This document shows, piece by piece, positions 44,531-54,143 of a DNA stretch of 64,000 nt. Position numbers and translations under genes: made by a program. This DNA comes from Salinivirgaceae bacterium. Its GTDB lineage: Bacteria; Bacteroidota; Bacteroidia; Bacteroidales; SZUA-534. Position 1 is the first letter of the stretch; each line of letters opens with the position of its first letter. The notes below the pieces were generated by a model that did no database searches, had not been told where the DNA came from, and saw only the letters and a program-made list of their open reading frames with translations. The stretch covers positions 1-64,000 of the forward strand of contig JAKSOL010000004.1 in NCBI GenBank assembly GCA_024405635.1, read 5' to 3'.

Positions 44531-44710
44531 CTAAAAAACTATTCTAAATACTTTAATTTCAAAGGGTTTGCGACATAAAATCAATCGCGGCGCAAATATA
44601 TAACAAAATCACTTTTTTGCTTTGCGGCATTTGTTATTTGTAAACATAAAAAGGCAGAAAAAAGTGACTAATTTTTTTCAAAAAAATTTTGCAGGTTAAA
44701 AAATACCTTC

Positions 44711-44718
44711 TACATTTG
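44711..44718 (+). promoter_or_regulatory. Bacteroidota -7 promoter element for tRNA-Asn
   Basis: TACATTTG followed by CA, with an upstream TTTG -33 element near 44688. Confidence 0.75.
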
Positions 44719-44758
44719 CACCGCATTTGAGAGGAATGCTAGAGTAATTAAAGTTTCT

Positions 44759-44832
44759 TCCTCCTTAGCTCAGTTGGTTAGAGCACCTGACTGTTAATCA
44801 GGGGGTCTTTGGTTCAAGTCCAAAAGGGGGAG
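44759..44832 (+). tRNA. tRNA-Asn (GTT)
   Basis: Cloverleaf: acceptor TCCTCCT/AGGGGGA, D arm AGCTCAGTTGGTTAGAGC, anticodon stem CCTGA-CTGTTAA-TCAGG, T arm TTTGG-TTCAAGT-CCAAA; CCA not encoded. Confidence 0.97.
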
Positions 44833-44833
44833 C

Positions 44834-44862
44834 AAAAAGGTCAACGAAAGTTGGCCTTTTTT
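44834..44862 (+). terminator. Intrinsic terminator after tRNA-Asn
   Basis: AAAAAGGTCAAC-GAAA-GTTGGCCTTTTTT. Confidence 0.85.
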
Positions 44863-45084
44863 GTTTTATACACCTAACAAATCATTGTGCTTCGTTTTTT
44901 TATTCCCTCGCTTTTAGGTTGTCGCAAATCGCTATTCTTTTTCAACGCTTTCCTTTTGGATTTTAATCTGCCTCTTTTTTATTGAAAAATGACAATGGTC
45001 TTTTATGTTTCGATAAGAGAAGTTTGTGCTTAATTTCTGAAAATCAGTCGTTTACAACATTTTCGATTTGTTTTATAAATATCT

Positions 45085-45092
45085 TACATTTG
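45085..45092 (+). promoter_or_regulatory. Bacteroidota -7 element upstream of hsdM
   Basis: TACATTTG, 33 nt upstream of the ATG at 45126. Confidence 0.65.
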
Positions 45093-45125
45093 GTTTTTAT
45101 TAAACATCAGTAACTATTGTTTTTT

Positions 45126-46682
45126 ATGGCAGACAACAAGAAAGAACAGGAACGACAGGAGCTCCACAGAACCATCTGGGCAATAGCAGATGAGATGAGA
45201 GGTTCAGTGGATGGATGGGACTTTAAGTCCTATATCCTTGGTATGCTCTTTTACAGATACATCAGTGAGAACATCACCAACTACATCAACAAGGGTGAAT
45301 GGGAAAGTGGTAATGAGGACTTCAACTATGCTGACCTTGCTGATGACATAGCAGAGGATGCAAGGGAAGAGATGGTAAGTGTGAAGGGCTTCTTCATTCT
45401 CCCAAGCCAGTTGTTCAGCAATATCTGCAAGGTATGTGATAAGGATGACAATCTCAATGAAACTCTTGAACACATATTTACTGCCATTGAAGCCTCTGCC
45501 AAGGGAACAGAGAGTGAGGATGACTTCAAGGGATTGTTTGCTGACCTTGATGTGAACTCCAACAAACTAGGGGCTACTGTTGTCAAGAGAAATGAAAAAC
45601 TGGTCAAGCTGCTCAGAGGAATAGAGCAGATGCAGTTGGGTGATTACCAAGACAACACCATTGATGCCTTTGGTGATGCATACGAGTATCTGATGGCTAT
45701 GTATGCCTCAAATGCTGGTAAGAGTGGTGGTGAGTTTTATACACCACAAGAGGTTTCTGAACTGCTCACCAAGTTGGCTACCCTTGGTAAGACAGAAGTC
45801 AATAAAGTTTATGATCCTGCTTGTGGCTCTGGCTCACTGCTGTTGAAGGCTGCAAAGATACTGGGCAAGGAGAATGTAAGACAAGGCTTCTATGGTCAGG
45901 AAATCAACCTTACCACCTACAACCTTTGCAGAATTAACATGTTCCTTCATGACATTGACTATGATAAGTTTGACATAGCATGTGAGGACACACTGCTCAG
46001 TCCTATGCACTGGGATGATGAACCATTTGAAGTGATTGTCAGCAACCCACCATACTCTATCAAGTGGAAGGGTGATGATGACATTACTCTGATAAATGAC
46101 CCAAGATATGCACCTGCTGGTGTGCTTGCTCCCAAGAGTAAGGCTGACCTTGCTTTCATCATGCACTCTCTGGCTTGGTTGGCTACCAATGGCACTGCCT
46201 CAATAGTCTGCTTCCCTGGTGTGATGTATAGAGGTGGTGCTGAAAAGAAGATAAGGCAGTATCTCATTGACAACAACTATGTTGATTGTATCATACAACT
46301 GCCAGACAACCTATTCTTTGGAACATCCATAGCCACTTGCATTATGGTATTGAAGAAGGCAAAGATGGATAATTCAACCCTATTCATTGATGCCAGCAAG
46401 GAGTGTGTAAAGATTACAAATAACAACAAACTCACCCCAGAGAACATTGAGCATATTGTGAAGATGTTTGCTGACAGAATTGATGTTCAGTATCAGTGTA
46501 AGTTGGTAAGCAATGATACCATAGCAGAGGGTGATTACAACCTTTCTGTATCATCTTATGTTGAGCAAGAAGACACAAGGGAGAAGGTGGATATTGTTGA
46601 ACTCAATGCCAGACTGGAAAAGATTGTGGCTCATGAGCAGAAACTGCGCCAGCAGATAGATGAGATTATCAAAGAACTCTAA
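45126..46682 (+). CDS. hsdM: Type I restriction-modification methyltransferase subunit M (m6A)
   Basis: GKSGGEFYTP, YDPACGSGSLL (motif I), VSNPPY (motif IV); EcoR124I/type IC-like N-terminus. Confidence 0.96.
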   Translation: MADNKKEQERQELHRTIWAIADEMRGSVDGWDFKSYILGMLFYRYISENITNYINKGEWESGNEDFNYADLADDIAEDAREEMVSVKGFFILPSQLFSNICKVCDKDDNLNETLEHIFTAIEASAKGTESEDDFKGLFADLDVNSNKLGATVVKRNEKLVKLLRGIEQMQLGDYQDNTIDAFGDAYEYLMAMYASNAGKSGGEFYTPQEVSELLTKLATLGKTEVNKVYDPACGSGSLLLKAAKILGKENVRQGFYGQEINLTTYNLCRINMFLHDIDYDKFDIACEDTLLSPMHWDDEPFEVIVSNPPYSIKWKGDDDITLINDPRYAPAGVLAPKSKADLAFIMHSLAWLATNGTASIVCFPGVMYRGGAEKKIRQYLIDNNYVDCIIQLPDNLFFGTSIATCIMVLKKAKMDNSTLFIDASKECVKITNNNKLTPENIEHIVKMFADRIDVQYQCKLVSNDTIAEGDYNLSVSSYVEQEDTREKVDIVELNARLEKIVAHEQKLRQQIDEIIKEL

Positions 46683-46688
46683 ACCCGT

Positions 46689-47807
46689 ATGGCAAAACAA
46701 CTATACATCGATTTTGACGAATATATCCGTCAGGGTGAACCTGAGGCTGCCATAAGTGCGGAGCAGTGGAAAACGGCAATAGGACTTCAGGCTGTAGATG
46801 GCATGAAGCCATCTCAATATCTCGTAGATATCGCGAAAAGAAATATTGAGGGTGACATTTCCATTGATGAAGTACAAGAGTTGCTGCGCTCATATTATGC
46901 CAGCGTAGCCAACAGGGATAAGATTAAAGAGAACTATGAAGAAGCCGATAAGGCATCGGCAAACATCAAGCGAATACTCTCCACAAACACTCTTGCATTC
47001 AACACTAACGGCTACATTGCCACACATCGTAGAATATTCGAAGGTGTGTTCAAGCATGCGGGCGAACTGCGTAAATATGATATTACGAAGAAGGAGTGGG
47101 TACTGCGAGGCAACACGGTCAACTATCTGAACTGGGAGGATTTGCGCCGCGCTCTTGACTATGACATCCAACAGGAAAAAGACTTCAGTTACAAAGGGCT
47201 CAGCGATGACGAGAAGATCAAGCACCTCTGCCGCTTTACGTCGGGATTGTGGCAGATACATCCTTTCTGCGAGGGCAACACACGTACTACCGCTGTGTTT
47301 CTCATCCAGTATCTGCGTTCTATTGGCTACAAGGTAACCAACGATATGTTTGCAGAACATTCGTGGTATTTCCGCAATGCCCTTGTTCGAGCCAACTACA
47401 AGAACTCTGAACTCGGCATAGATTACGACTACACATATCTTGAGCGTTTTTTCTTCAATCTCTTGTTAGGTGAAAAGAATGAACTAAAGAACCGTTTTCT
47501 GATTATTAATGCGCCCGATAATTGGAACGATATACAAAAAAGTACCCAAGAAAGTACAGATATTGCTAACAAAAGTACCCAAGAAACAGAACTTGGTACC
47601 CAAGAAAATAAGTTGAGTACCCAAGAAAAGATATTGGCGGAGATACGCAAAAACCCTTTTACTACTCGCGAACAACTTGCAATAGTGGTTGGAATAACAC
47701 CTGACGGCATAAAAAAACAGTTGGAAAAACTGAAAAGAACAAATACAATCAAGCATGTAGGACCTACAAAAGGCGGTCATTGGGAAATTTGTGAACAGGA
47801 GGACTGA
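46689..47807 (+). CDS. Fic-domain protein with N-terminal VbhA-like antitoxin segment and C-terminal HTH
   Basis: WKTAIGLQAVDG..PS inhibitory-helix-like N-terminus; HPFCEGNTRTT Fic motif; repeat linker then wHTH (TREQLA...GPTKGGHWEI). Confidence 0.85.
   Translation: MAKQLYIDFDEYIRQGEPEAAISAEQWKTAIGLQAVDGMKPSQYLVDIAKRNIEGDISIDEVQELLRSYYASVANRDKIKENYEEADKASANIKRILSTNTLAFNTNGYIATHRRIFEGVFKHAGELRKYDITKKEWVLRGNTVNYLNWEDLRRALDYDIQQEKDFSYKGLSDDEKIKHLCRFTSGLWQIHPFCEGNTRTTAVFLIQYLRSIGYKVTNDMFAEHSWYFRNALVRANYKNSELGIDYDYTYLERFFFNLLLGEKNELKNRFLIINAPDNWNDIQKSTQESTDIANKSTQETELGTQENKLSTQEKILAEIRKNPFTTREQLAIVVGITPDGIKKQLEKLKRTNTIKHVGPTKGGHWEICEQED
47542..47628 (+). repeat. Four GTACCCAAGAAA direct repeats in the Fic-HTH linker
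   Basis: Exact 12-mers at 47542, 47575, 47596 and 47617, encoding (S/G)TQE. Confidence 0.9.
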
Positions 47808-47822
47808 AGTATGAGCAGGATT
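47792..47822 (+). repeat. 31-bp gene-junction direct repeat, copy 1 (fic1 stop / fic2 start)
   Basis: TGAACAGGAGGACTGAAGTATGAGCAGGATT; 27/31 identical to 48671-48701. Confidence 0.9.
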
Positions 47823-48686
47823 TCATTTAGGTTTTATAAAGACCATGAGGTAAGAGCTGTGTGGGATGCCATAACTGACAGATGGTTTTTCTCTGTCCTT
47901 GATGTGCTTGGTGCTATCAATGAGCAGGATGATTATACCAAGACAAGAAACTATTGGAAATATCTCAAAACCAAGTTGAAGAAGGAGCAGAATGAAGTGG
48001 TTAGTGCCACTAACCAGTTGAAACTTCTTGCTCCAGATGGTAAGAAAAGACTTACTGACACCCTTGATATGAAGGGCATTGAAGAACTTGCCAAGAACAT
48101 CCCCAATAGCAAGGCAATGGAGTTTCTTGACTGGCTTACATATAGTGAGAATACACTTGATGGCAAGAGTAAGCAAAAGGCTTATGAACTCTGGGAAAGT
48201 GGAATATTGGAAACCATTGAAGTTGGAACTGTCAAGGGGCTTCAGCAGATACACGCCTACATCTTTGCAGGCTTGTACGACTTTGCTGGTCAGGTTAGAA
48301 CAAAGACAATTTCTAAGGGTGGTTTTACCTTCTGCTTGGCACAATACCTGCCACAGCAATTAGGCATTATTGAAAAGATGCCAGAAGCAAGCATAGATGA
48401 CATCTTCGATAAGTATGTAGAGATGAATGTGGCCCACCCCTTCATGGAGGGTAATGGCAGAAGCACCAGAATATGGCTTGACCTCATGTTGAAAGCAAGA
48501 GCAGACAAATGTGTTGACTGGAGTCAGATAAACAAGAACGACTATCTGCAAGCCATGACACAGAGTGTTGCAGATGCTACTTTCATCAAGCAGTTGCTTG
48601 CCAATGCTCTCACTGACAACATCAATGACAGAGAACTCTTCATGAAGGGCATTGATTACTCTTATTATTATGAACAGGAGGATTAA
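47811..48686 (+). CDS. Class III (NmFic-like) Fic adenylyltransferase with Bro-N-like N-terminal domain
   Basis: VRAVWD...WFFSVLDV...NYWKYLK Bro-N-like region; canonical HPFMEGNGRSTR; C-terminal autoinhibitory GIDYSYYYE. Confidence 0.88.
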   Translation: MSRISFRFYKDHEVRAVWDAITDRWFFSVLDVLGAINEQDDYTKTRNYWKYLKTKLKKEQNEVVSATNQLKLLAPDGKKRLTDTLDMKGIEELAKNIPNSKAMEFLDWLTYSENTLDGKSKQKAYELWESGILETIEVGTVKGLQQIHAYIFAGLYDFAGQVRTKTISKGGFTFCLAQYLPQQLGIIEKMPEASIDDIFDKYVEMNVAHPFMEGNGRSTRIWLDLMLKARADKCVDWSQINKNDYLQAMTQSVADATFIKQLLANALTDNINDRELFMKGIDYSYYYEQED

Positions 48687-48701
48687 GGTATGAGCAAGAT
48701 T
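48671..48701 (+). repeat. 31-bp gene-junction direct repeat, copy 2 (fic2 stop / hsdS start)
   Basis: TGAACAGGAGGATTAAGGTATGAGCAAGATT. Confidence 0.9.
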
Positions 48702-49796
48702 GGAGAACTGATACAACAATATTGTCCAGAAGGGGTGGAGTATGTTAAGTTAGGAGATGTATGTAAAACAAAAACACCTCCTGCAAAACTCAAAACTGCA
48801 GACTACAAAGACCAAGGATTATATCAAATTATTGACCAAGGACAAAGTCAATATGCTGGATATACTGATGATGAAAGATATTTATTACCAGATGCAGAAT
48901 ATGTCCTTTATGGAGACCATACATGCATTGTAAAATACCATAAAGGATGTTTTGCACAAGGTGCAGATGGACTAAAAATACTTGTCCCAATAGGGCAGAA
49001 TATCAAATATGTCTTTTATGCATTGTCAGCATACAACTTAACAAGCACAGAATACAAAAGGCATTGGACACAGGCAAAGGAGATAGAAATCCCCCTTCCT
49101 CCTCTCCCAGTTCAAAAGGAGATAGTAAGGATATTAGATACATTTACAGAGCTGCAAGCGGAGCTGCAAGCGGAGCTGCAAGCAAGACAACTACAATTTG
49201 AATACTATCAAGATTTTCTTCTAAACAAATCACAATTCTCCAATCATCTTTCTATTAGAAATCTGTGTATTGTCAAAAAGGGAAAAACACCTATACAAAA
49301 AGCAAAAGAAGGAAAATATCCTTTGGTTGTTACTGCTATGGAAAGAAGGTCTAATGATGAGTATCAGTTTGATGCAAATGCTGTATGCATTCCTTTAATT
49401 TCTTCAAGAGGACATGGAGTAGCATCACTAAATCATGTATATTATCAAGAAGGGAAGTTTGCCTTGGGTAACATATTATGTGCAGTAATTCCAATGGATG
49501 AAAGTATACTTAAAGCAAAGTTTTTATACTATTACTTGGAGTATGCAAAAGATTACACTCTTGTGCCACTAATGAAAGGAGGGGCAAATGTTTCTATGCA
49601 TTGTTCAGATATAGAAAAAGTAAAGATACCAGTTCCATCCATAGAACAACAAGAGAAAATCATCTCCATTCTTGATAAGTTTGATGGACTTGTCAATGAC
49701 ATATCCCAAGGTCTGCCAGCAGAAATTGAGGCAAGAAAACAGCAGTATGAATACTATAGAGATAAACTCTTAACCTTCAAAAGAAAAGCAGAATAA
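48690..49796 (+). CDS. hsdS: Type I restriction-modification specificity subunit S
   Basis: CPEGVEY start; two TRDs with conserved IPLPPLPVQKEIVRILDTF and IPVPSIEQQEKIISILDKF; GLPAEIEARKQQYEYYRDKLLTF end. Confidence 0.95.
   Translation: MSKIGELIQQYCPEGVEYVKLGDVCKTKTPPAKLKTADYKDQGLYQIIDQGQSQYAGYTDDERYLLPDAEYVLYGDHTCIVKYHKGCFAQGADGLKILVPIGQNIKYVFYALSAYNLTSTEYKRHWTQAKEIEIPLPPLPVQKEIVRILDTFTELQAELQAELQARQLQFEYYQDFLLNKSQFSNHLSIRNLCIVKKGKTPIQKAKEGKYPLVVTAMERRSNDEYQFDANAVCIPLISSRGHGVASLNHVYYQEGKFALGNILCAVIPMDESILKAKFLYYYLEYAKDYTLVPLMKGGANVSMHCSDIEKVKIPVPSIEQQEKIISILDKFDGLVNDISQGLPAEIEARKQQYEYYRDKLLTFKRKAE
49149..49184 (+). repeat. 3 x 12-bp tandem repeat (GAGCTGCAAGCG; ELQA) in the HsdS central spacer
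   Basis: GAGCTGCAAGCG GAGCTGCAAGCG GAGCTGCAAGCA, read directly. Confidence 0.95.
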
Positions 49797-49802
49797 CCGC
49801 AC

Positions 49803-50903
49803 ATGGGTGATAATAAACCGAAATACATTGAAGGCGTGGGTTGGCGGTATGAGACGGTGCATAGCCAGAAACGACGCATGAAATCCCATCACTATAATGA
49901 GGTGGGCACATATCTCGTCACCGTCGTAGTGGAGGGGCGTAAGCCTGTCTTCGGGCATATCGCCGGCAACATTAAGGCATCACCTACTGCACCCGATTAT
50001 CCAGTCACTGTATTATCGCCGCTAGGCGAGAATCTGCTCCACGAGCAGCTTCCGAAGATACACGCTGTTTACCCGATGGTGGACGTGTGGCGCCTGTGTG
50101 TCATGCCCGACCATCTGCATATCATCATCCGCATCAACGCCACCTTGCCACCGAAGAAACACCTGGGCACCATCATAGGCGCTTTCAAGGGCGGCATAAG
50201 TCGAGCATGGGGAGGCGGCACTCTCTTCGAAGATAACTACAACGATCGCATCCTTATGCGCGATGGGCAGTTGGAGAACTGGAAGGCATACCTCGACGCT
50301 AATCCTTATCGCTGGCTCGTCAGGCATTCACGCCCAGAGCTGATGCAGAGAGCGCTGTGCCTCGTCATCAACGGTGTCAGGTATGGAGCCTTCGGTAATT
50401 TCATGCTGCTCAGGCACCCCGAGAAGGTGCAGGTCTTCTTTCACCGGAAGATGGTGGATGACAGGCTGACGCCTGACATACAGGGACCGCAAGCCACGAC
50501 GAGCATACAGGGGCAAGCCACGATGAGCGTATGGAGGCAGAAGATACCCACCGAGCAGACGCTTTTTTGGCAGAAGGAACACGCGAGGTTGATAGAGATG
50601 GCGGAGCAAGGCGATGTGATGGTGACACCAGGCATCAGTGAATGCGAGAAGCGAATAAAGAACGAGTGCCTCCAGCAGCACCATAGGATCATACACCTAC
50701 AGGCGGAGCCTATCGGCAGTTATTGGAAGCCAGAGCGCAGCCGTTTTGAGGCTTGCACAGCCGGTAGCCTCCTCATACTTGCTCCATGGGCGGAGGATCT
50801 GGAGGGAGACACCGACTATGACCGCTTTCATAATCTTAACACCCTCGCTGCGAGCATCTGCCAGCTGAATGTGCAGGCTGCTATGCAGATAACAACAGGC
50901 TGA
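49803..50903 (+). CDS. Y1 HUH transposase (IS200/RAYT-like) fused to a C-terminal DprA/Smf(SLOG)-like domain
   Basis: YLVT, MPDHLH (HUH), YNDRI, YLDANP (catalytic Tyr); C-half GNFMLL, VTPGISECEK, IIHL, LLILAPW resembles a DprA-type Rossmann fold (less certain); GC/CpG-rich relative to its neighbours. Confidence 0.72.
   Translation: MGDNKPKYIEGVGWRYETVHSQKRRMKSHHYNEVGTYLVTVVVEGRKPVFGHIAGNIKASPTAPDYPVTVLSPLGENLLHEQLPKIHAVYPMVDVWRLCVMPDHLHIIIRINATLPPKKHLGTIIGAFKGGISRAWGGGTLFEDNYNDRILMRDGQLENWKAYLDANPYRWLVRHSRPELMQRALCLVINGVRYGAFGNFMLLRHPEKVQVFFHRKMVDDRLTPDIQGPQATTSIQGQATMSVWRQKIPTEQTLFWQKEHARLIEMAEQGDVMVTPGISECEKRIKNECLQQHHRIIHLQAEPIGSYWKPERSRFEACTAGSLLILAPWAEDLEGDTDYDRFHNLNTLAASICQLNVQAAMQITTG
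50461..50530 (+). repeat. REP-like palindromic repeat inside the HUH gene
   Basis: ACAGGCTGACGCCTG hairpin, then two CATACAGGG..GCAAGCCACGA units; first 38 nt are 34/38 identical to 50895-50932. Confidence 0.75.
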
Positions 50904-50958
50904 CGCCTGCCGCACAGGGACCGCAAACCACGGCACAGGGGCTGCAAACCGCCCCTAT
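50895..50958 (+). repeat. REP-like palindromic repeat overlapping the HUH gene stop codon
   Basis: CAGGC-TGAC-GCCTG hairpin, two CACAGGG..GCAAACC units, AGGGGC-N8-GCCCCT hairpin (50937-50956). Confidence 0.75.
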
Positions 50959-51011
50959 GTCAATGGCGTTAGCTTTTGATGATACCAACAAGAACAACAA
51001 AACAACAAACT

Positions 51012-54000
51012 ATGGCACAATACAATATCATAGCAGAGCAAGAAGAATATACTGTAGTCAGTGAGTATGAAGCAGAGTATGGCAGACCAGACAAGTATCA
51101 GTCAGAGGCTATGCTTGAAAAGGACTTCATCAAGGCACTCACAGAACAAGGCTATGAATACCTTCCTATTCATGAGGAAAAAGACCTTGTGGATAACCTC
51201 AGAGTTCAGCTGCAGAAACTGAACAACTACACATTTACTGATGGTGAATGGGAAAGATTTTTCAGAGAGAACCTTGCCAATAAGAATGATGATATTGTAG
51301 CCAAGACCACCAAGATACAAGAGGATTATATCCAAGTCCTAAAATGTGATAGTGGTGAAAGCAAGAACATCTACCTCATAGACAAGAAGAACATCCACAA
51401 CAATTACCTGCAAGTCATCAACCAATATGAAGAAGGTGGTGGTGTCCATGACACAAGATATGATGTCAGCATATTGGTGAATGGTCTGCCATTGGTTCAT
51501 GTGGAACTGAAAAGAAGGGGTGTTCAACTAAAAGAGGCTTTCAACCAGATAAACAGATATCAAAGAGATAGTTTCTGGGCTGGCTGTGGATTGTATGAGT
51601 ATGTGCAGATTTTCATTATCAGCAATGGCACAAACACCAAGTATTACAGCAATACCACCAGAGCCAACCACTTGAAGGAGCAACAGCAAGGTTCGGCAAA
51701 GCTCACCAACCGGAAGAAGACGAGCAACTCATTTGAGTTTTCATCATTCTGGACTGACAGCAACAACAAGGCTATCCTTGACCTCATAGACTTTACCAAG
51801 ACCTTCCTCTGCAAGCATACACTGCTGAATGTGCTGACCAAGTATTGTGTCTTTACAACAGAGAGGATGCTGATGGTGATGAGGCCTTATCAGATAGCAG
51901 CCACAGAAAGAATTATACAGAGGATAAACATAGCCAACAACTATAAGCAGTGGGGTAAGATTGAAGGTGGTGGCTACATTTGGCACACCACTGGCTCTGG
52001 TAAGACATTGACCTCATTCAAGACTGCTCAACTGGCATCAAGACTGGACTACATAGACAAGGTGCTGTTTGTGGTAGATAGAAAAGACCTGGACTACCAG
52101 ACTATGAAGGAGTATAACAGATTTGAGGAAGGTGCTGCTGACAGCAATTCTTCAACATCTGTATTACAGAGGCAGTTGGAGAACAAGGACAAGAATGGGG
52201 CTTACCACAACTATAAGATTATTATTACCACCATACAGAAACTCTCCATCTTTGTGCAGAAGAACAAGGGGCATGAGATTTTCCAGAAAAGGGTTGTCAT
52301 TATCTTTGATGAATGTCATAGAAGCAACTTTGGCGAAATGCATACAGCCATCACCAAGAACTTCAAGAAGTATCATCTGTTTGGTTTTACTGGCACACCT
52401 ATCTTTGCACAGAATGCTCCTTCGACAGGCTCAGGAACCGCCATGAAGACAACACAGCAAGCCTTTGGTGACAAACTGCATACTTACACCATTGTTGATG
52501 CCATAAATGATGAGAATGTCCTTCCATTCAGAATAGACTATGTGAACACATTGAAGCAGAAGGAGGACATCAAGGATAAGCAGATTTCAGCCATTGACAG
52601 AGAAAGGATTATGTCTGCTCCAGAGAGGGTTGAAGAAGTGGTGAAGTATATTCTTGAACACTTTGACCAGAAGACAAAGAGAAGTTCCTACTACTCATTC
52701 AGAACAACACAGAACATTGGTGAAGTGGCAAGTGCTGGTAAGGGCAAGGAAATTAAGGAAAAGAAACTGGCACAGAAGTTGGCTGGTTTCAATGCTATGT
52801 TTGCTGTGGCATCCATCCCAATGGCAAAGGCTTACTACAATGAGTTCAAGAAACAACAAGCCTCACTGCCAGAAGCCCAGAGATTGAAGGTAGCCACTAT
52901 CTATTCCTATGGAGCAAATGAAGAAGAAGTTGATGGTATTTTGGCAGAAGAAAATCCAGAGAGCACAACAAGCCTTGACCAGCAGTCAAGAGATTTCCTT
53001 GAAGGTGCTATCAAGGATTACAACCAGATGTTCAATACCAACTATGACACCAGCAATGACAAGTTCCAGAACTACTACAAGGATTTGTCATTGAGAATGA
53101 AGAACAGACAGGTTGATTTGCTGATTGTGGTGAATATGTTCCTTACTGGCTTTGATGCTACTACACTGAACACTCTGTTTGTAGATAAGAACCTCAAACA
53201 GCATGGATTGATACAAGGTTATAGCAGAACCAACAGAATATTGAACTCCATAAAGACCTTTGGCAATATAGTCTGTTTCCGCAACCTTCAACAAGAAACC
53301 GACGATGCTATCGCTCTCTTTGGCGACAAAGACGCAAGCAGTATAGTCCTTTTAAAAGACTTTAAATCCTACTACAACGGATACGACACCGCGAAGGGCA
53401 AGCACTGCTATGGATATGTCGAATTAGTGGAGCAGCTGAAGCAGGAGTTCCCTGACGGCAGACCCACTATGGGTGAGCAAGAAGAAAGAAGGTTCATCAG
53501 TCTGTTTGGTAGTCTGTTGAAATCTATAAATGTGCTTCAAGCCTTTGACCAGTTTGAAGGAAAGGAACTGCTCACTGATGGTCAGATGCAGGACTATCAG
53601 AGCCATTACCTTGATTTGAGGGATAAGTGGAGAAAGAGAACTCATGCAGACAAGGAGGTTGTGAATGATGACCTTATCTTTGAAACAGAACTCATAAGAC
53701 AAGTAGAAATCAACATTGACTACATCCTCATGTTGGTGAAGCAGTATCATGACAGCAACTGCAAGAACAAGGAACTGCTGGTGAACATCAGCAAGGCAAT
53801 AGGTGCAAGTATGAACCTCAGAAGTAAGAAGGAACTTATTGAAAGTTTTATTGCAACAATCAACAGTGGCGTGGATGTGAATGGAGCGTGGGAGGAATAT
53901 GTGAAGCTTAAAAAGCAAGAGGAACTAAACACCATAATACAAGAAGAGAAGTTGAAGGCGACCGAGACCAAGAAGTTTGTTGAGAACGCCTTCCGCGACG

Positions 54001-54143
54001 GACAACTGCGAACCACAGGAACCGACATAGACAAGATACTGCCTGCAATGTCTCGCTTTGGTGGAGGCGGAGACAGGAGTCAGAAGAAGACGTCTGTTAT
54101 TCAAAGATTGAAGGATTTCTTTGAGAAATACTTTGGACTGTAA
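51012..54143 (+). CDS. hsdR: Type I restriction endonuclease subunit R
   Basis: RYDV..LVNGLPLVHVELK nuclease motif, QINRY, WHTTGSGKT Walker A, DECHRS, FTGTP, MFLTGFD, QGYSRTNR. Confidence 0.96.
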   Translation: MAQYNIIAEQEEYTVVSEYEAEYGRPDKYQSEAMLEKDFIKALTEQGYEYLPIHEEKDLVDNLRVQLQKLNNYTFTDGEWERFFRENLANKNDDIVAKTTKIQEDYIQVLKCDSGESKNIYLIDKKNIHNNYLQVINQYEEGGGVHDTRYDVSILVNGLPLVHVELKRRGVQLKEAFNQINRYQRDSFWAGCGLYEYVQIFIISNGTNTKYYSNTTRANHLKEQQQGSAKLTNRKKTSNSFEFSSFWTDSNNKAILDLIDFTKTFLCKHTLLNVLTKYCVFTTERMLMVMRPYQIAATERIIQRINIANNYKQWGKIEGGGYIWHTTGSGKTLTSFKTAQLASRLDYIDKVLFVVDRKDLDYQTMKEYNRFEEGAADSNSSTSVLQRQLENKDKNGAYHNYKIIITTIQKLSIFVQKNKGHEIFQKRVVIIFDECHRSNFGEMHTAITKNFKKYHLFGFTGTPIFAQNAPSTGSGTAMKTTQQAFGDKLHTYTIVDAINDENVLPFRIDYVNTLKQKEDIKDKQISAIDRERIMSAPERVEEVVKYILEHFDQKTKRSSYYSFRTTQNIGEVASAGKGKEIKEKKLAQKLAGFNAMFAVASIPMAKAYYNEFKKQQASLPEAQRLKVATIYSYGANEEEVDGILAEENPESTTSLDQQSRDFLEGAIKDYNQMFNTNYDTSNDKFQNYYKDLSLRMKNRQVDLLIVVNMFLTGFDATTLNTLFVDKNLKQHGLIQGYSRTNRILNSIKTFGNIVCFRNLQQETDDAIALFGDKDASSIVLLKDFKSYYNGYDTAKGKHCYGYVELVEQLKQEFPDGRPTMGEQEERRFISLFGSLLKSINVLQAFDQFEGKELLTDGQMQDYQSHYLDLRDKWRKRTHADKEVVNDDLIFETELIRQVEINIDYILMLVKQYHDSNCKNKELLVNISKAIGASMNLRSKKELIESFIATINSGVDVNGAWEEYVKLKKQEELNTIIQEEKLKATETKKFVENAFRDGQLRTTGTDIDKILPAMSRFGGGGDRSQKKTSVIQRLKDFFEKYFGL

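Follow-up and report, generated by a model that had tools for sequence, protein, structure and literature searches.

The 64,000-nt stretch of DNA analysed here (the window; positions 1 to 64,000 of contig JAKSOL010000004.1 in assembly GCA_024405635.1, from a Salinivirgaceae bacterium of the order Bacteroidales) carries an operon whose genes hsdM, fic2, hsdS, and hsdR are, by their domain content, an EcoR124-like (Type IC-like) Type I restriction-modification system. These genes are almost devoid of the dinucleotide CpG, and the question raised by the locus is how one operon came to lose its CGs within a chromosome of ordinary CpG content. We lean towards the answer that the operon was recently imported by recombination from a long-lived, CpG-free mobile pool, in which CG was probably lost mainly by C-to-T hypermutation. 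Near-total CG loss here marks a mobile defence operon, not an organism.

CpG deficit of the operon within its genome

Counting CGs against expectation, we found 3 against 71.1 in hsdM (45117-46682; observed/expected ratio, o/e, 0.04), 4 against 37.8 in fic2 (47811-48686; o/e 0.11), 2 against 34.7 in hsdS (48690-49796; o/e 0.06), and 6 against 99.0 in hsdR up to position 53279 (50976-53279; o/e 0.06), which sums to 15 where about 243 would be expected. The first-pass annotation had reached exactly the same numbers (3, 4, 2, and 6) by hand, and it had described the flanking genes, fic1, and a HUH gene as rich in CG, which they are, with o/e between 0.88 and 1.27. Thus, fic1, between hsdM and fic2, has 51 CGs with 51.6 expected (o/e 0.99), and open reading frame (ORF) 5, the putative HUH gene between hsdS and hsdR, has 72 with 81.8 expected (o/e 0.88), while the flanking purH and tamB-like genes stand at 1.04 and 1.27 and the intergenic DNA at 44531-45116 contains 15 CGs with 15.1 expected.

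The whole genome (2.66 Mb in 36 contigs, GC 40.3%) has a CpG o/e of 1.08, and 1-kb windows along it (n=5271) average 1.07 with a standard deviation of 0.20. Only nine of these windows fall below 0.3, every one of them inside the hsd locus, and the lowest value elsewhere is 0.33. The depleted genes have an excess of TG (o/e 1.31-1.67) and CA (o/e 1.35-1.52) compared with about 1.2 for the genome, and their GC dinucleotide stands at 1.0-1.2 compared with a genomic 1.42. A sliding window, the check proposed for the first-pass claim of depletion, therefore shows a deficit that is unique in the genome and accompanied by TG and CA excess. To our knowledge, near-total loss of CG of this kind (o/e 0.00-0.1 at 35-45% GC) lies far beyond what is seen in bacterial genomes.

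Arginine is encoded by AGA or AGG at 69 of the 72 arginine codons of the depleted genes, in line with the earlier remark that it is almost always so. However, codon usage alone cannot account for the loss, because CG is missing across codon boundaries too: the deficit is present in each of the three codon phases, and boundary CGs number 1 with 44.6 expected in hsdM and 2 with 55 expected in the 5' part of hsdR. The G+C content of third codon positions (GC3) is 0.48-0.50 in hsdM, fic2, and the 5' part of hsdR, and codons ending in C and codons starting with G are both common. The deficit thus belongs to the dinucleotide and is not a by-product of codon usage.

CpG-free and CpG-normal alleles of one operon

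Relatives of the operon were collected as 80 loci kept from a scan of one genome per species and 80 metagenome loci (L and G numbers below are our handles for loci and genomes). The close clade, in which HsdM is 86-98% identical to that of the window, comprises 31 genome loci and 20 metagenome loci. By record titles its Bacteroidales are largely horse and ruminant gut metagenome-assembled genomes (MAGs), with labels that include Prevotella, Sodaliphilus, Bacteroides, Physcousia, and Rikenellaceae. Among the 31 genome loci, hsdM has an o/e of at least 0.77 in 20, of 0.5-0.7 in 5, and below 0.3 in 6 (L019, L039, L013, L018, L020, and L022, the last without any CG); among the 20 metagenome loci, 2 fall below 0.3 (L129 and L131). 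CpG-normal hsdM alleles have 45-56% GC and CpG-free ones 39-48%. The same division is found in hsdR, which is CpG-poor in G043 and G044 (o/e 0.08-0.09), G041 (0.14), and L131 (0.01) and close to 1.0 in CpG-normal alleles with 85-91% protein identity.

The DNA around the CpG-free copies is of ordinary CpG content (o/e 0.92-1.07) in five of the eight contexts. Two more are moderately low, namely G041 (0.40-0.89 in its sampled contigs) and L129 (0.64 and 0.35), and only L131 is CpG-free throughout. In addition, alleles up to 25% divergent and residing in other genera have the CpG-free state in common, and the recipient genome therefore does not impose the loss. A tree of 153 HsdM rows places six CpG-free alleles, including that of the window, in one 13-row clade (support 96) that also takes in intermediate and normal alleles, and L022 in a second clade. 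By their sequences, the alleles form two recombining pools, one CpG-free and one CpG-normal. The first-pass annotation had pictured a donor with a CpG methyltransferase, of the M.SssI type found in Mollicutes, or with CG-directed restriction. That the backbone is foreign to its host is upheld; a Mollicutes-like donor is contradicted by the closest relatives, all of which are Bacteroidales, and a CpG-free donor genome has no counterpart among the 160 loci, with five of the eight contexts CpG-normal.

The CpG-free state is old. Alleles in this pool differ from one another at 7-26% of nucleotides, with third-position identity down to about 50%. We tallied how many third-position pyrimidine sites differ between two alleles, keeping sites followed by G apart from the rest. 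Between the window and L131, hsdM differs at 67 of 145 such sites before non-G but at 1 of 82 before G, and hsdR at 91 of 220 but at 2 of 80; between the window and L022, the hsdM counts are 53 of 128 and 1 of 58. Even in the closest pair, the window and G043, the contrast is visible, with 22 of 177 against 4 of 91 in hsdM (Fisher p=0.048) and 28 of 258 against 3 of 88 in hsdR. Third-position pyrimidines in CpG-free alleles are mostly C before non-G and remain T before G, whereas pairs of CpG-normal alleles show no such contrast. Since saturated allele pairs almost never differ before G, these counts show that CG was excluded through the entire diversification of the CpG-free pool, and the window's copy appears to have spent little time outside the excluding regime. 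Two earlier proposals gain from this comparison: that the loss is of long standing, given that alleles differing at about half of their third positions almost never have C before G, and that the foreign backbone arrived too recently to regain CGs.

The borders of the depleted DNA tell how the copy in the window was put together. Homology between the window and every relative begins at the ATG of hsdM (45126) and ends at the stop codon of hsdR, and for hsdR itself it starts at about 51010; the upstream segment 44531-45125 had no homologue beyond itself in a BLAST comparison with all loci, apart from one 56-nt match of chance size. At the 3' end of hsdR, 53280-53456 holds 12 CGs and 53870-54143 holds 13, with none between them in 53457-53869. 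In windows of 60 codons, the two CG-bearing patches are 86-90% and 83% identical to CpG-normal L014 but only 73-74% identical to L121, otherwise the closest CpG-free allele, and because they are closest to L014 we interpret them as conversion tracts. Likewise, fic1 has 84% DNA identity to the gene at the same position in the CpG-normal locus L037, which marks it as a probable later recombinational insert. Homologues of fic2 in other operon copies are CpG-normal, with 67-84% DNA identity. A 34-nt repeat, 85% identical between its copies at the fic1/fic2 junction (47789-47822) and the fic2/hsdS junction (48668-48701), brackets fic2, and each copy takes in a stop codon together with the start of the gene that follows. 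It looks like a cassette-insertion scar, and Fic cassettes seem to have entered between hsdM and hsdS through recombination at this junction sequence. Genes similar to fic1 and fic2 recur between hsdM and hsdS in L037, L014, L011, and L034.

Mosaic alleles occur elsewhere in the family as well. For example, hsdM of L016 has an ordinary CpG content over the first 900 nt and is CpG-free from there on, and L034, L033, and L024 have CpG-free 3' ends. Together, the boundaries within hsdM, the hsdR patches compared with L014, fic1 compared with L037, and the 34-nt repeat show that the operon family was assembled by recombination between CpG-free and CpG-normal pools. Of the usual features of a genomic island, the locus has a composition unlike that of its host with sharp borders, and its close relatives reside in unrelated hosts; integrase, flanking repeats, and mobility genes were not found. 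No integrase ORF lies between purH and the tamB-like gene, and a repeat search detected no flanking direct repeat of at least 16 nt at the locus. Entry by homologous or allelic recombination is the more likely route.

How the pool lost its CGs

If CG was lost by mutation, the bases that replaced it should differ from those left by simple avoidance, and four-fold degenerate sites allow the comparison. In the window's CpG-free genes, the shares at these sites are A.32, C.33, G.12, and T.23 when the next base is not G, and A.29, C.01, G.14, and T.56 when it is G, so that before G the gain of T is exactly the lost share of C. A C-to-T hypermutation equilibrium predicts A.32, G.12, and T.56 before G and fits (p=0.61), whereas a reversible model that does no more than forbid C predicts A.48, G.18, and T.34 and is rejected (p=2e-10). 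The four-fold sites of L131 give the same outcome (hypermutation p=0.17, forbidden-C model p=4e-8), and CpG-normal alleles show no effect of the next base. In NCN codons of the CpG-free genes, the share of G is taken over by A. This replacement pattern fits the footprint expected of unrepaired 5-methyl-CpG deamination, as far as the substitution model holds, and the deamination route that had been suggested from the first reading is thereby favoured over simple avoidance. The spectrum of substitutions at CG sites (about 50% TG, 18% AG, 5-15% CA, and 5-13% CT) does not discriminate by itself: most CGs straddle a codon boundary, and there no change other than C-to-T is silent.

One member of the pool is CpG-free over its whole length. 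L131 is a 10,227-bp metagenome contig with 35% GC and a single CG where about 301 would be expected. It has terminal inverted repeats of 151 nt that are 98% complementary, a complete Type I system, five ORFs of no assigned function, and a T-rich 15-nt motif (TTTTTGTTATTTTTA) of which at least six copies recur in the non-coding DNA. A match to TAnnTTTG, the Bacteroidota -7 promoter consensus, lies upstream of its hsdM, as it does in the window (TACATTTG, 45085-45092, forward strand). One ORF of 473 aa has a confidently predicted fold (predicted local distance difference test, pLDDT, 90) and matches family A DNA polymerases (T7, apicoplast, and Klenow) with E values around 1e-4 and template modelling (TM) scores of 0.27-0.40, and we model it as a compact, family-A-polymerase-like protein. 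Its gene has distant homologues (33% identity) that precede the same operon, with an integrase and a resolvase as neighbours in L080. The gene itself is absent from 401 sampled genomes of the order, from G041-G045, and from the genome of the window; Pfam, NCBIfam, and PHROGs returned nothing useful for it, and a protein atlas only unnamed clusters.

DNA similar to L131 was present in part in 20 sequencing runs from 11 studies, mostly labelled sheep or goat gut. Assembled contigs did not extend past the ends of L131 in three of four runs, although contigs cannot prove the true ends of a molecule. L131 may be a self-replicating mini-element. Pipolins are self-replicating integrative elements that carry defence genes, and L131 resembles them in combining a polymerase-like gene, terminal inverted repeats, and a Type I system; unlike theirs, its fold match is to family A rather than family B, and it is modest (the TM scores given above). 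The polymerase-like gene occurs neither in the genome of the window nor in G041-G045, so L131 and the window's copy appear to be linked by a common CpG-free allele pool, not by a common vehicle.

A search for a CpG methyltransferase in the same habitat produced one candidate. The sampled contigs of G041-G045, including those that bear the restriction-modification genes, have CpG o/e of 0.40-1.01. The window's own genome has two C5-methyltransferase matches, one of them partial; the complete one is close to M.HhaI (5e-53) and far from M.MpeI (7e-10). Its gene (G000:C7:7681-8982) sits in one of the genome's few moderately CpG-low stretches, with o/e 0.47 at C7:7501. The C5-methyltransferase of G041 is also M.HhaI-like. 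G042, a horse-gut Bacteroidales MAG whose sampled contigs have o/e of 0.41-0.54, encodes two related C5-methyltransferases (C15:7201-8763 and C116:3026-5215; L232 and L236), and the best solved relative of the one tested is the CG-specific M.MpeI (4DKJ, an identity given in PMC5944983; E 1.3e-31 over 133 residues). Around G042, 61 genomes were searched and yielded three weak relatives of the enzyme, all in CpG-normal DNA. Viral, plasmid, and phage sequences offered no close vehicle: hsdM had a single match in viral contigs, at 70% protein identity, and none close in the phage collection; fic2 and the polymerase-like gene of L131 had no match in viral contigs; and the plasmid and phage collections gave matches at 60-70% DNA identity only.

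The reading we prefer would then run as follows. The coding sequence from the start codon of hsdM into the 3' part of hsdR would have recombined recently into a CpG-normal Bacteroidales chromosome, from a source that would be an old CpG-free pool of the same operon on mobile DNA among herbivore-gut Bacteroidales. Loss of CpG in that pool would have been driven mainly by C-to-T hypermutation at CG, through unrepaired deamination of 5-methyl-CpG, and since the C-to-T signature is that of such deamination, the pool probably replicated in CpG-methylating hosts. Selection probably reinforced the loss, because the family is under strong pressure to lose restriction targets. The CpG-normal fic1, ORF5, and two hsdR 3' patches would be later additions by recombination or insertion. 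Seen as a whole, the first-pass account of a foreign, old, and recently arrived operon with a deamination-like pattern holds up, and its exotic donor genome gives way to a mobile pool of Bacteroidales.

Several observations weigh against methylation as the driver, and most of them speak for pure counter-selection, under which CG was purged together with other short targets because DNA that contains CG or methylated CG is attacked on entry into a host. The attack could come from Type II enzymes whose sites include CG, from methyl-directed Type IV enzymes, or from some CG-sensing defence, and no methylating donor would be needed. We regard this explanation as less likely than hypermutation but as a serious rival to it. 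In its favour, selection against restriction targets is evidently efficient in the pool and could reinforce or cause the loss of CG, since the purge of short targets is family-wide and includes CpG-normal alleles (o/e for GATC 0.05-0.18, CTAG 0.07-0.17, and CATG 0.08-0.43), with AGCT, GTAC, or GGCC reduced in some alleles to 0 where 10-25 would be expected. The CpG-free genes of the window itself have GATC 1 with 18.9 expected, GTAC 1 with 16.6, CTAG 1 with 9.3, GGCC 2 with 10.8, and AGCT 8 with 27.2. Moreover, the CpG-free copies lie mostly in CpG-normal chromosomes, and no genome-wide CpG-free host of the operon was found among the 160 loci (80 genome, 80 metagenome). No CpG-specific methyltransferase could be tied to any CpG-free copy, which leaves the methyltransferase that had been postulated for the donor without a link to the pool: L131, small and mobile as it is, has no C5-methyltransferase among its ORFs; the G042 enzyme is a candidate CpG methylase in the same habitat whose match to M.MpeI is limited to the catalytic core; and none of the 401 genomes sampled from the order has a relative of it at E<=1e-35. 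The equilibrium test, for its part, uses a simple substitution model and takes selection on synonymous codons to be independent of context.

Counter-selection would also cover the CG-free crAss-like phages of Bacteroides, which have lost CG without known CpG methylation: crAss001 has 44 CGs with 1397 expected over 50 kb (o/e 0.031; L212, 1-50000) and DAC15 an o/e of 0.007 over 20 kb (L215, 30000-50000). These gut Steigviridae resemble the cassette in host order, GC content (34-37%), and near-total CG loss, and crAss001 is similar to L131 in base composition. However, the pattern in crAss001 differs, in that these phages have an excess of CT and AG and no gain of T before G, whereas the cassette has an excess of TG and CA, and no sequence relationship between them was found in viral contigs or the phage collection. 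The causes of CG loss in cassette and phages may therefore differ. What tells most against pure counter-selection is that the share of C before G passes wholly to T, at the p values given above for the window and L131. The cassette resembles phages and mobile elements under restriction-site avoidance in that several 4-bp palindromes are purged in an allele-dependent manner, but unlike them it lacks a bare dinucleotide in every context, not in palindromes alone, and its replacement pattern points to mutation. We know of no nuclease that recognises bare CG.

Two further explanations fare worse. A local process in this genome, such as methylation or mutation aimed at the operon, could have made or could maintain the loss, and between the window and G043, C before G does arise about 3-fold less often than C in other contexts. 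We consider it highly improbable, given that fic1 and ORF5 inside the operon and the adjacent genes are CpG-normal, that the divergent alleles in other genera are equally CpG-free, that the genome as a whole has no deficit and the best of its two C5-methyltransferase matches is M.HhaI-like, and that HsdM is an adenine methyltransferase. An ordinary compositional island from a low-GC donor with CG-avoiding codons (Mollicutes, Clostridia, or similar) would be suggested by L180 (GC 22-26%, o/e 0.08-0.14) and the L147 group (GC 27-29%, o/e 0.15-0.35), and we give it the least credence of all. These relatives have only 73-76% protein identity and belong to another clade; the GC3 of the window's depleted genes is near one half, with C-ending codons preferred except before G; codon boundaries lack CG as well; every one of the closest relatives is from Bacteroidales; and the promoter box upstream of hsdM in L131 and the window is of Bacteroidota type.

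The hypermutation that we favour and the attack assumed by counter-selection could also act together. It is conceivable, though on balance doubtful, that a CG-free mobile pool of Type I cassettes, Fic genes, and a 10-kb element that replicates itself is kept so by CpG methylation in some hosts and by methyl- or CG-directed attack in others, a CG-centred defence axis that would also shape crAss-like phages. If so, CG content would be a natural tracer of mobile DNA. The two allele pools provide a built-in clock and a tracer of gene flow, and any CG-bearing patch within a CpG-free allele makes a recombination tract visible. Methylation as the driver would imply CpG-methylating Bacteroidales in herbivore guts; selection as the driver would imply a defence able to sense CG or methyl-CG; and either cause would be relevant to the as yet unexplained lack of CG in crAss001-type phages.

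Among cellular genomes, the nearest parallel is found in Mycoplasma penetrans (M.MpeI) and Spiroplasma (M.SssI), where CG was likewise lost with an excess of TG and CA; the cassette has, in addition, a C-to-T-specific equilibrium at synonymous sites. M. penetrans serves as the methylation case in PMC11282364, which deals with CpG bias across bacteria, and its CG-specific enzyme and CpG-poor entire genome are described in PMC11282364 and PMC5944983. Unlike in M. penetrans, only a mobile operon is hit here, within normal genomes, and to an o/e of 0.00-0.11 at 35-43% GC. Our literature search returned no account of CpG-free restriction-modification cassettes or of CpG-free Bacteroidales mobile DNA.

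Not all phages in the comparison share the deficit of crAss001 and DAC15. Three Suoliviridae phages have o/e of 0.68-0.87 and Cellulophaga phi14:2 has 0.47 (20 kb each), and Bacteroides phage B40-8 has 1.19 over its whole genome. In crAss001, GATC (0 with 133 expected) and CTAG (2 with 170 expected) are nearly absent. Within the operon family, alleles differ in which 4-bp palindromes are purged, as seen in hsdM and hsdR of L026, L029, L148, L161, L080, L077, and L079: one group has CATG 0 with about 23 expected, and another has AGCT and CATG 0 and GATC, GTAC, and GGCC 0-1, with 7-21 expected for each. Such allele-specific purging reads as a record of different restriction landscapes.

Gene content and minor features of the locus

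All features of the locus described here lie on the forward strand where a strand applies. A tRNA-Asn gene (GTT; 44759-44833, ARAGORN) lies in CpG-normal host DNA about 290 bp before the operon, directly followed by a terminator-like hairpin (44834-44861, terminator scan). The operon begins with hsdM (45126-46682), whose product is the predicted N6-adenine methyltransferase subunit (Pfam N6_Mtase PF02384, 1e-114; HsdM_N PF12161, 3e-22). It is followed by fic1 (46689-47807), with a Fic domain and a winged helix in Pfam, and by fic2 (47811-48686), with a Bro-N domain in Pfam and an NmFic-type adenylyltransferase domain (NCBIfam NF046029, 2e-77, above cut-off). The specificity subunit is encoded by hsdS (48690-49796), in which two stretches of Methylase_S (PF01420) correspond to two target-recognition domains. 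The CpG-free part of hsdR (51012-53279) covers the nuclease (HSDR_N PF04313), the superfamily 2 motor (SWI2_SNF2/ResIII, PF18766/PF04851), and domain 3 (T1R_D3-like PF22679), and its 3' end with the CG mosaic (53280-54143) encodes an EcoR124_C domain (PF12008, 4.6e-66).

In its HsdM, HsdS, and HsdR domains, EcoR124_C included, and in the four-residue repeat of HsdS, the predicted system is like EcoR124I/II (Type IC). Unlike EcoR124I/II, it has inserted Fic-domain genes and a HUH-like gene. The central repeat of hsdS consists of 2.9 copies of a 12-bp unit (GAGCTGCAAGCG; 49149-49183, Tandem Repeats Finder), encodes ELQA repeats, and holds both CGs of the gene. Four-residue repeats in HsdS affect the specificity of EcoR124I/II, and by analogy the spacer in the recognition site may depend on the copy number here. 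In L131, another 12-bp unit occupies this position of hsdS in about 3.5 copies.

ORF5 (49803-50903; 366 aa, GC 55%), inserted between hsdS and hsdR, has a weak similarity to REP-associated tyrosine (HUH) transposases (NCBIfam NF047646, 2e-9, 37.5 bits with a cut-off of 80), and a Pfam search of the protein gave no match. Of its 1039 homologues most are unnamed, and a few are annotated as transposase or PF01797. Two copies of a 38-nt direct repeat, 89% identical, lie inside ORF5 (50461-50498) and at its 3' end (50895-50932). The hsdS-hsdR junction into which it is inserted (49797-50975 in the window; L121:1359-2456) is an insertion hot spot. G043 has at this place an ORF5 homologue of only 30% protein identity, and its insert and that of the window have the first ~20 residues in common and are 77% identical in DNA over the junction. 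A 955-nt insert sits at the same point in the L131-like copies of runs X3 and X9 (L131 6161-6187).

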